64,000 nt of DNA from Flavobacterium sp. (GTDB lineage: Bacteria > Bacteroidota > Bacteroidia > Flavobacteriales > Flavobacteriaceae). The stretch covers positions 2,050 through 66,049 of the forward strand of contig NZ_JANLVD010000019.1 of assembly GCF_031363805.1 (NCBI RefSeq), in the 5' to 3' direction. Shown piece after piece: positions 23,067-45,368 of the stretch. How positions within the stretch are numbered: the stretch's first letter is position 1; the number at the start of each line of letters is the position of its first letter. The notes under the pieces are model-generated. The model saw nothing but the letters and a program-made list of their open reading frames with translations. It ran no database searches and had not been told where the DNA came from. The position numbers were made by a program, and so were the translations under genes.

Positions 23067-23450
23067 ATGCCAACAATTCAACAATTAGTAAGAATAGGAA
23101 GAACCAAAATGACTAAGAAGTCTAAATCGGTGGCGCTAGATTCTTGTCCTCAAAGAAGAGGTGTTTGTACGCGTGTTTACACTACGACTCCAAAAAAACC
23201 AAACTCAGCCATGCGTAAAGTAGCGCGTGTACGTTTGACAAATGGAAACGAAGTAAATGCCTACATACCTGGAGAAGGACACAATCTACAAGAGCACTCG
23301 ATAGTATTAGTTAGAGGTGGGAGGGTAAAAGATTTGCCAGGAGTTAGGTATCACATTGTTCGTGGTGCGCTTGATACATCAGGTGTAGCAGGAAGAACAC
23401 AAAGAAGATCTAAGTACGGAGCAAAACGCCCAAAGGAAGCAAAAAAGTAA
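23067..23450 (+). CDS. rpsL: 30S ribosomal protein uS12
   Basis: [22 protein letters not shown]. Confidence 0.99.
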
Positions 23451-23547: not shown

Positions 23548-24024
23548 ATGAGAAAAAGAGCGGCAAAGAAAAGACCACTTTTACCAGATCCAAGGTTCAA
23601 TGACCAATTGGTAACACGTTTTGTAAACAACTTAATGTGGGATGGTAAAAAATCAACAGCTTTCAAAGTATTTTATGATGCTATTGACATCATCGAATCA
23701 AAAAAGCAAGATGCAGAAAAATTATCATTAGATATCTGGAAAGATGCCTTAACCAATGTTATGCCTCACGTAGAAGTACGTAGTCGTAGAGTAGGTGGAG
23801 CTACATTCCAAATTCCAATGCAAATACGTCCAGACAGAAAAATTTCCATGGCAATGAAGTGGTTAATACTTTATTCAAGAAAAAGAAATGAAAAGTCTAT
23901 GGCGCAACGTTTGGCTTCAGAATGCTTAGCTGCGGCTAAAGAAGAAGGAGCGGCTGTTAAGAAAAGAATGGATACTCACAAAATGGCAGAGGCTAACAAA
24001 GCATTCTCTCACTTTAGATTTTAA
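23548..24024 (+). CDS. rpsG: 30S ribosomal protein uS7
   Basis: EVRSRRVGGATFQIP, HKMAEANKAFSHFRF. Confidence 0.99.
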   Translation: MRKRAAKKRPLLPDPRFNDQLVTRFVNNLMWDGKKSTAFKVFYDAIDIIESKKQDAEKLSLDIWKDALTNVMPHVEVRSRRVGGATFQIPMQIRPDRKISMAMKWLILYSRKRNEKSMAQRLASECLAAAKEEGAAVKKRMDTHKMAEANKAFSHFRF

Positions 24025-24034
24025 TTCTTAAGAA

Positions 24035-26191
24035 ATGGCAAGAGAACTTAAATATACACGAAACATAGGAATTGCTGCTCATATAGATGCTGGTAAAACA
24101 ACAACAACAGAGCGTATATTATTCTACACAGGAAAATCACACAAAATTGGTGAAGTGCACGATGGTGCTGCAACAATGGACTGGATGGCACAAGAGCAAG
24201 AAAGAGGTATTACTATTACTTCTGCTGCTACCACTTGTGAATGGAATTTTCCAACAACTCAAGGTAAACCTTTACCTGAAACATTGCCTTACCATTTTAA
24301 TATTATCGATACCCCAGGACACGTTGACTTTACAGTTGAAGTGAATCGTTCTTTGCGTGTACTTGATGGACTGGTTTTCTTATTTTCTGCTGTTGATGGT
24401 GTTGAGCCACAATCAGAAACTAACTGGAGACTTGCTGATCAATATCGTGTACCACGTATCGGTTTTGTTAATAAAATGGACAGACAAGGTTCTAACTTTT
24501 TGATGGTATGTCAACAAGTAAGAGATATGCTAAAATCGAATGCAGTTGCAATCACTTTGCCAATTGGTGAAGAAAATGATTTCAAAGGTGTGGTAGATTT
24601 AGTAAAAAACCAAGCGATAGTATGGGATGAAGAAGGTATGGGAGCAACTTACGAGATTGTGCCTATTCCTGCTGATATGCTTGACGAAGTTAAAGAATAC
24701 AGAGGAATTCTTATCGAAGCAGTAGCTTCTTACGATGAGAATTTGCTTGAAAAATTCATGGAAGATGAAAACTCTATTACGGAGGAAGAAATCAATACAG
24801 CTTTAAGAGCTGCCGTGATGGATATGGCGATTATTCCAATGATTGCTGGTTCTTCTTTCAAAAATAAAGGAGTTCAATTCATGTTGGATGCAGTATGTAA
24901 ATACTTGCCATCTCCAATGGATAAAGAAGGAATTTGGGGAATTGACCCAGATGACCAAGATTTATTAGAAGAAGATCAGACCAAAATATTACGTAAACCA
25001 GATGTAAAAGAGCCTTTCGCTGCTTTAGCATTTAAGATTGCTACTGACCCATTCGTAGGTCGTTTGGCTTTCTTCCGTGCTTATTCAGGAAGATTGGATG
25101 CTGGATCATATGTTTTAAATACACGTTCTGGTAACAAAGAAAGAATTTCTCGTATCTACCAAATGCACGCCAATAAGCAAAACCCAATCGAGTACATCGA
25201 GGCGGGAGATATTGGAGCGGCAGTTGGATTTAAAGATATTAAAACTGGAGATACATTGTGTGATGAAAAACACCCAATAATTCTTGAGTCAATGAAATTT
25301 CCTGCACCAGTAATTGGTATTGCTATCGAACCAAAAACAAAAGCAGACGTAGATAAAATGGGTATGGCTTTGGCTAAATTAGCTGAAGAAGATCCAACAT
25401 TTACAGTAAGAACGGATGAAGCTTCAGGTCAAACTATTATATCAGGTATGGGTGAACTTCACTTAGATATCTTGGTGGATAGAATGAGACGTGAATTCAA
25501 AGTTGAAGTGAATCAAGGTGAACCTCAAGTTGAATACAAAGAAGCATTTACAAGATCTGCAACACACAGGGAAACTTACAAGAAACAATCCGGAGGTCGT
25601 GGTAAATTCGGTGATATCGTATTTACGCTTGAGCCAGCTGATTTGGTTGATGGTAAAGCTCCTGTCGGATTACAGTTTGTAAATGCTGTAAAAGGTGGTA
25701 ACGTTCCTAAAGAATATATTCCATCTGTAGAAAAAGGTTTCCGTGAAGCTATGAAAACGGGTCCTCTTGCAGGATATCAAGTAGATAGTTTGTAAGTAAC
25801 TTTAACAGACGGATCTTTTCACCCAGTCGATTCTGATGCACTTTCTTTTGAACTTGCAGCTAGAATGGGTTATAGAGAAGTAGCTAAAGCTGCTGGAGCA
25901 ATCGTTTTGGAACCAATCATGAAAATGGAAGTGATTACACCTGAAGAAAACATGGGAGATATCGTTGGTGATATCAACCGTCGTAGAGGTCAAGTGAATG
26001 ACATGGGTGACAGAAACGGAGCTAAAACTATCAAGGCTGATGTGCCTTTATCAGAAATGTTCGGATATGTAACTACATTAAGAACATTGTCATCTGGTAG
26101 AGCAACTTCAACTATGGAGTTTTCACACTATGCAGAAACGCCTTCTAACATATCAGAAGCAGTAATTAAAAAAGCAAAAGGTAACGCATAA
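24035..26191 (+). CDS. fusA: Elongation factor G, interrupted by an in-frame TAA at 25793-25795
   Basis: [21 protein letters not shown]. After TAA the same frame continues [26 protein letters not shown] to the stop at 26191 (718 codons). Confidence 0.97.
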
Positions 26192-45212: not shown

Positions 45213-45293
45213 GGGGAGATACTCAAGCGGCCAACGAGGGCAGACTGTAAATCTGCTGTGTGAACTTCGCAGGTTCGAATCCTGCTCTCCCCA
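45213..45293 (+). tRNA. tRNA-Tyr(GTA)
   Basis: Acceptor GGGGAGA/TCTCCCC, GCAGA-CTGTAAA-TCTGC, long variable arm. Confidence 0.97.
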
Positions 45294-45368
45294 CAAGAAT
45301 GATATTAGGTTTTAGAGTTTAGATTTTAAATCTAAATTCTTAAATCAGAAATCTAAAATCAAATCTCT

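Follow-up and report, generated by a model that had tools for sequence, protein, structure and literature searches.

The in-frame TAA that interrupts fusA, the gene for elongation factor G (EF-G), in this Flavobacterium draft genome is in all likelihood a technical artefact, and we count a non-representative variant caught in the consensus of a genome bin as one form of it. We infer the technical cause from comparison of the site with relatives and conspecifics and from further private lesions elsewhere in the assembly. Specifically, the A to T change at 25793 is a single-base discrepancy confined to this draft assembly, and the real fusA of the organism would most likely carry AAA (Lys587) and encode an EF-G of normal length, 718 aa. 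On this view an error in base calling, consensus building or assembly, or a variant in the consensus that does not represent the population, would have produced the stop, and no biological mechanism would be needed.

The window, which is the whole stretch of 64,000 nucleotides that was analysed, corresponds to positions 2050-66049 of contig C261 in an assembly of 2.99 Mb and 273 contigs, with a completeness of 94.4%, a contamination of 4.4% and a GC content of 31.6%. Judging by these statistics, it is probably metagenome-assembled or in some other way a fragmented draft. Direct reading of the window sequence gives TTG-TAA-GTA at 25790-25798, as the first-pass annotation had reported, and translation of 24035-26191 yields one internal stop, at codon 587, in addition to the normal stop at 26189-26191. 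The relevant features are as follows.

23067-23450, plus strand: rpsL, a 127-aa ORF upstream of fusA in the str operon
23548-24024, plus strand: rpsG, a 158-aa ORF upstream of fusA in the str operon
24035..26191, plus strand: fusA (elongation factor G), 718 codons with codon 587 read as Lys, assigned by translation, Pfam and 94-98% amino-acid identity to 718-aa Flavobacterium EF-Gs
24035..25795, plus strand: 586-aa ORF in the ORF listing
25793..25795, plus strand: in-frame TAA at codon 587, with T at 25793; AAA (Lys) in relatives and conspecifics
25796..26188, plus strand: 131 codons past the stop (remaining domain IV and domain V), intact throughout and subject to purifying selection
25865..26191, plus strand: 108-aa ORF with an ATG start in the ORF listing, the fragment expected from a gene caller, without residues 587-610 and thus without the GSFH loop
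26203..26508, plus strand: rpsJ (S10), a 101-aa ORF directly 3' of fusA, whose identical protein is Ribosomal_S10 in many contigs
45213..45294 (C261:47262-47343), plus strand: tRNA-Tyr with anticodon GTA, found by aragorn on the genome; not a suppressor

When the stop is read through, the protein shows the five-domain architecture of EF-G, with GTP_EFTU, EF-G_D2, EFG_III, EFG_IV and EFG_C spanning residues 8-708 in Pfam. Residue 587 lies within EFG_IV (497-620), and EFG_C follows at 624-708; a truncated EF-G would therefore be without the GSFH loop and domain V, and the loss that had been predicted from the letters alone agrees with the Pfam coordinates. This loop forms the tip of domain IV, and fast translocation depends on it. 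Likewise, the earlier descriptions of a frame that stays intact for about 130 codons beyond the stop and of a downstream ATG at 25865 opening a 108-aa frame are borne out, the former by 131 codons with no further lesion. The gene order rpsL-rpsG-fusA-rpsJ is the usual one and recurs in syntenic contigs, in which Pfam recognises Ribosom_S12_S23 and Ribosomal_S7. In length (718 aa), domain order, str operon context and amino-acid identity, the locus thus resembles an ordinary Flavobacterium fusA, from which its difference comes down to one base, TAA in place of AAA at codon 587. Owing to this TAA, an uninterrupted full-length EF-G frame is absent from this assembly.

Codon 587 in relatives and conspecifics

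Codon 587 is AAA in all 12 same-genus relatives that were read at the site, and among 120 homologues the position is occupied by Lys in 119 and by Arg in one. Among named proteins, the nearest are EF-Gs of Flavobacterium, each 718 aa long. Conspecific contigs from three samples (ENA ERZ28577319, NCBI GCA_043777995.1 and ENA ERZ27314330), one contig from each, encode an EF-G that has K587 and otherwise matches the read-through protein of the window letter for letter, that is, with 100% amino-acid identity apart from codon 587. At the nucleotide level, fusA in these contigs is 98.1-98.4% identical to the window gene, and all of the 34-41 differences are synonymous save TAA versus AAA; with flanks, over 3.8-5.2 kb, the contigs are 96.2-98.5% identical to the window. 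The proposal that AAA, one substitution away, was the ancestral codon is in keeping with the AAA of relatives and conspecifics. In none of the related genomes is a stop conserved at this position, which holds AAA or encodes Lys/Arg throughout, and the TAA is private to this draft assembly.

The sequence beyond the stop carries no trace of decay. In comparison with one conspecific, this part shows four nucleotide differences, all of them synonymous, and in comparison with a 91%-identical relative it shows 43, of which 39 fall in third positions, with two amino-acid changes in 131 codons. A decaying pseudogene is not what these data describe, given zero missense changes relative to the conspecifics; purifying selection has acted in full on the frame past the stop until the present. 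With only synonymous differences and no decay after the stop, the stop must therefore be either extremely recent or not real.

Several searches were directed at further copies of the site. An exact-pattern scan of metagenome and genome contigs with a 37-mer around the site, in which the variable base was set to N, gave no match, and protein look-ups returned no record of the exact 586-aa product or of the neighbouring 561-aa protein. Look-ups with L3 and S10 for a same-strain contig across the site returned only the known conspecifics, one chimeric scaffold and many other species. The chimeric scaffold (L211, ENA ERZ28573671 scaffold_25485) is 92.5% identical to the window in its fusA part and 97.3% identical in its ribosomal-protein part, with an N gap between the two, and was rejected as conspecific evidence on account of its chimeric nature and the gap. 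The assembly of the species that is nearest by another gene (G070) lacks fusA.

Other lesions in the assembly

Other private gene-breaking lesions, including one in an essential gene, are present in this assembly. A codon-usage heuristic for in-frame stops across the genome proved unspecific, as it responded for the most part to adjacent same-frame genes and to antisense shadows, and tblastn was used instead: contigs of relatives, about 2 Mb in total, supplied ORFs for comparison with the whole genome, which covered about 590 distinct genes with clear counterparts in relatives. After removal of false signals, four lesions were left, in fusA, alaS, an M61 peptidase gene and a gene for a 251-aa protein. 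The signals that were discarded comprise one on C37, produced by the adjacent genes purN and rnhA; one on C108, a spurious ORF that we take to be part of a 23S rRNA gene; one on C46, a natural in-frame deletion; and a number of N-terminal stops that reflect differences in start site.

In alaS (C86:32680-35315, plus strand), which is single-copy in this assembly, a 1-nt deletion in a T run at C86:33724-33728 changes GTTTTGG to GTTTGG and splits the gene into ORFs of 360 aa and 525 aa. The gene is intact in the conspecific contigs L198 and L199 (TTTT, 878 aa; L198:1065-3701) and in the relatives G006 and G009. In the M61 peptidase gene, a TAA at C64:5669-5671 (L050:2299-2301) falls between the M61_N and M61 domains; the site is GAA in four conspecific contigs, where the gene encodes 612 aa, and codes for Thr, Ser or Asp in relatives. 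The intact conspecific contigs confirm the lesions in alaS and the M61 gene as private to this assembly. The remaining lesion, a TAA at C19:2785-2787 on the minus strand, lies in a gene for a conserved 251-aa protein of unknown function that is 82% identical over its whole length to its counterpart in G006, the one relative compared, which has Leu at this position; the change would presumably be TTA to TAA. As a separate observation on the alaS region, a Logan contig (SRR20217184_1206460, L201, 3841 bp) is 100.000% identical over its full length to C86:29338-33178, and because of this identity run SRR20217184 is judged to hold the same strain; the contig ends about 550 bp short of the alaS deletion.

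Alanyl-tRNA synthetase and EF-G are both indispensable, and a living cell with both the fusA and the alaS lesion is not possible; the lesions thus have the character of errors placed at random, on which selection has never acted. The breakage of two essential single-copy translation genes in one genome therefore indicates consensus errors. In this respect the assembly resembles other draft and metagenome-assembled genomes with artefactual pseudogenes: the fusA lesion is isolated, private, limited to a single base, free of decay and placed in an essential gene, and it is accompanied by other private lesions, among them the homopolymer-type 1-nt deletion in alaS. What counts against an artefact is that the assembly is not grossly bad, with four lesions in about 590 genes and with fusA as the sole broken gene among 39 window genes compared, and that substitution errors are uncommon in a well-covered short-read consensus. 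Even so, the suggestion that a base-call or consensus error of AAA is the simplest explanation fits the conspecific AAA, the lack of decay and the other private lesions.

Alternative explanations of the fusA stop

A genuine nonsense mutation that is a dead end, that is, a very recent change from a rare lineage of dying or non-viable cells, or a minority allele, that entered the consensus by chance, would also account for a clean single substitution without later decay, provided that the event was extremely recent, and metagenome bins do mix strains, with contamination here at 4.4%. However, a lethal allele cannot be the majority in a growing population, and the alaS frameshift alongside would mean that two independent lethal alleles had been captured. 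We therefore consider this explanation improbable. It is nevertheless ahead of those in which the stop is real and the cell lives with it, each of which carries very little probability.

One such explanation is functional recoding, in which the UAA is read through by an ochre suppressor or in a programmed manner, or in which EF-G works in two pieces, residues 1-586 plus the product of the 108-aa ORF. The frame that stays open for 131 codons and the ATG ORF at 25865 are compatible with it, and a conserved in-frame TGA is apparently used in another gene of the genus. The fusA stop, however, occurs in no relative or conspecific, whereas about 54 species share the TGA. Of the three stop codons, UAA is the least prone to leakage, and few proteins are as abundant as EF-G. 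Moreover, aragorn on the whole assembly found 34 tRNAs, from an incomplete tRNA set, and a tmRNA; a UUA (tta) anticodon, as an ochre suppressor would have, is absent among them, and three tRNA-Lys, three tRNA-Tyr and one tRNA-Gln are normal. The first-pass annotation had correctly described the tRNA-Tyr of the window as carrying a normal anticodon, GTA. It was also right that TAA is not reassigned to sense, because, of 1,135 long ORFs closed by a stop codon, 855 (75%) have TAA, 197 TAG and 83 TGA. As for a two-piece EF-G, the two ORFs leave out residues 587-610 with the GSFH loop, and no relative has a split EF-G. Neither readthrough nor a split protein, both of which had been offered as ways in which the stop might be real, is thus upheld, and the lack of conservation brings recoding in either form close to refutation; we regard it as highly improbable.

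A real and tolerated truncation, with another translocase taking over, either a paralogue of the EF-G2 type or a copy on unassembled DNA, has a similarly slim chance of being correct. Two fusA genes are present in some bacteria, and the assembly is only 94% complete. Against this, a search of the whole assembly with the EF-G protein found neither a second EF-G nor a separate gene for domains IV-V; it recovered distant GTPases only, namely a 529-aa frame (24-27% identity), a 611-aa frame, tuf and a 957-aa frame, none of which matches domains IV-V. No counterpart of the EF-G2/fusA2 paralogues was therefore found in this assembly, and rescue by a second EF-G, another of the earlier proposals, fails on the same search. 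Furthermore, the downstream part of fusA shows no relaxed constraint, and the conspecifics keep it intact. Strictly speaking, a suppressor or a paralogue could still lie on unassembled DNA, as the assembly lacks about 6% of the genome and some of the tRNAs; that the TAA is real and fixed, with full-length EF-G made by efficient UAA readthrough, for example through a suppressor tRNA on the unassembled 6%, seems to us no less far-fetched. Literature searches on natural nonsense alleles of fusA, and on readthrough of UGA in Flavobacterium or Bacteroidetes, yielded no relevant paper. Taken together, these comparisons favour a technical artefact as the origin of the fusA stop.

A conserved TGA in a TlpA-like gene

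The genome-wide screen also turned up a gene for a TlpA-like lipoprotein (C228:12672-13841, plus strand) with one in-frame TGA at the end of a linker, at C228:13437-13439 (L042:2266-2268), and orthologues were collected as L043-L048 and L158-L183. The protein consists of a signal peptide, DUF4369, a Pro/Ala-rich linker and an AhpC/TSA thioredoxin fold with WCGPC. Of 121 Flavobacterium species sampled, about 54 have the TGA at the same site, complete single-contig genomes included. Across these 121 species, the homologues above about 60% identity carry exactly one TGA with a single exception, as do three at 56-60%; the remaining, mostly more distant homologues or paralogues have no TGA, and two of them that were aligned lack the linker insertion. 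At the 31 loci that were read, the codon is TGA in every case; it is preceded by AAA at 28 of them and by AAC at three, and is invariably followed by A. Amino-acid conservation begins right past the TGA, and the alignment contains neither a conserved in-frame start downstream of it nor a conserved hairpin on its 3' side. Additionally, no tRNA-Sec above the Rfam cut-off was detected in seven TGA-carrying genomes. From its pattern of conservation, the site looks like programmed UGA readthrough, which would give a short DUF4369 lipoprotein together with a full-length fusion.

The TlpA-like TGA thus has the look of a real recoding site in the genus, and the fusA TAA does not. Programmed recoding, such as selenocysteine UGA or leaky UGA, shares with fusA an in-frame stop within a conserved frame; in such systems, however, the stop is kept across species, whereas the fusA stop is confined to this genome, is a UAA, not a UGA, and stands in place of a Lys that hardly varies.

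For the reading of draft and metagenome-assembled genomes, these findings urge caution, because in-frame stops in their essential genes are usually private consensus errors. Three signs give such errors away even when no reads are at hand: intact conspecifics, differences near the lesion that are all synonymous, and further private lesions in the same assembly. If the fusA stop were real, an essential and highly expressed translation factor would be reliant on UAA suppression, which would be remarkable, and the evidence is against it. The fusA stop itself is of little consequence, and the conserved TGA of the TlpA-like gene, found as AAA-TGA-A in about half of the sampled Flavobacterium species, may be worth more than the stop in fusA.
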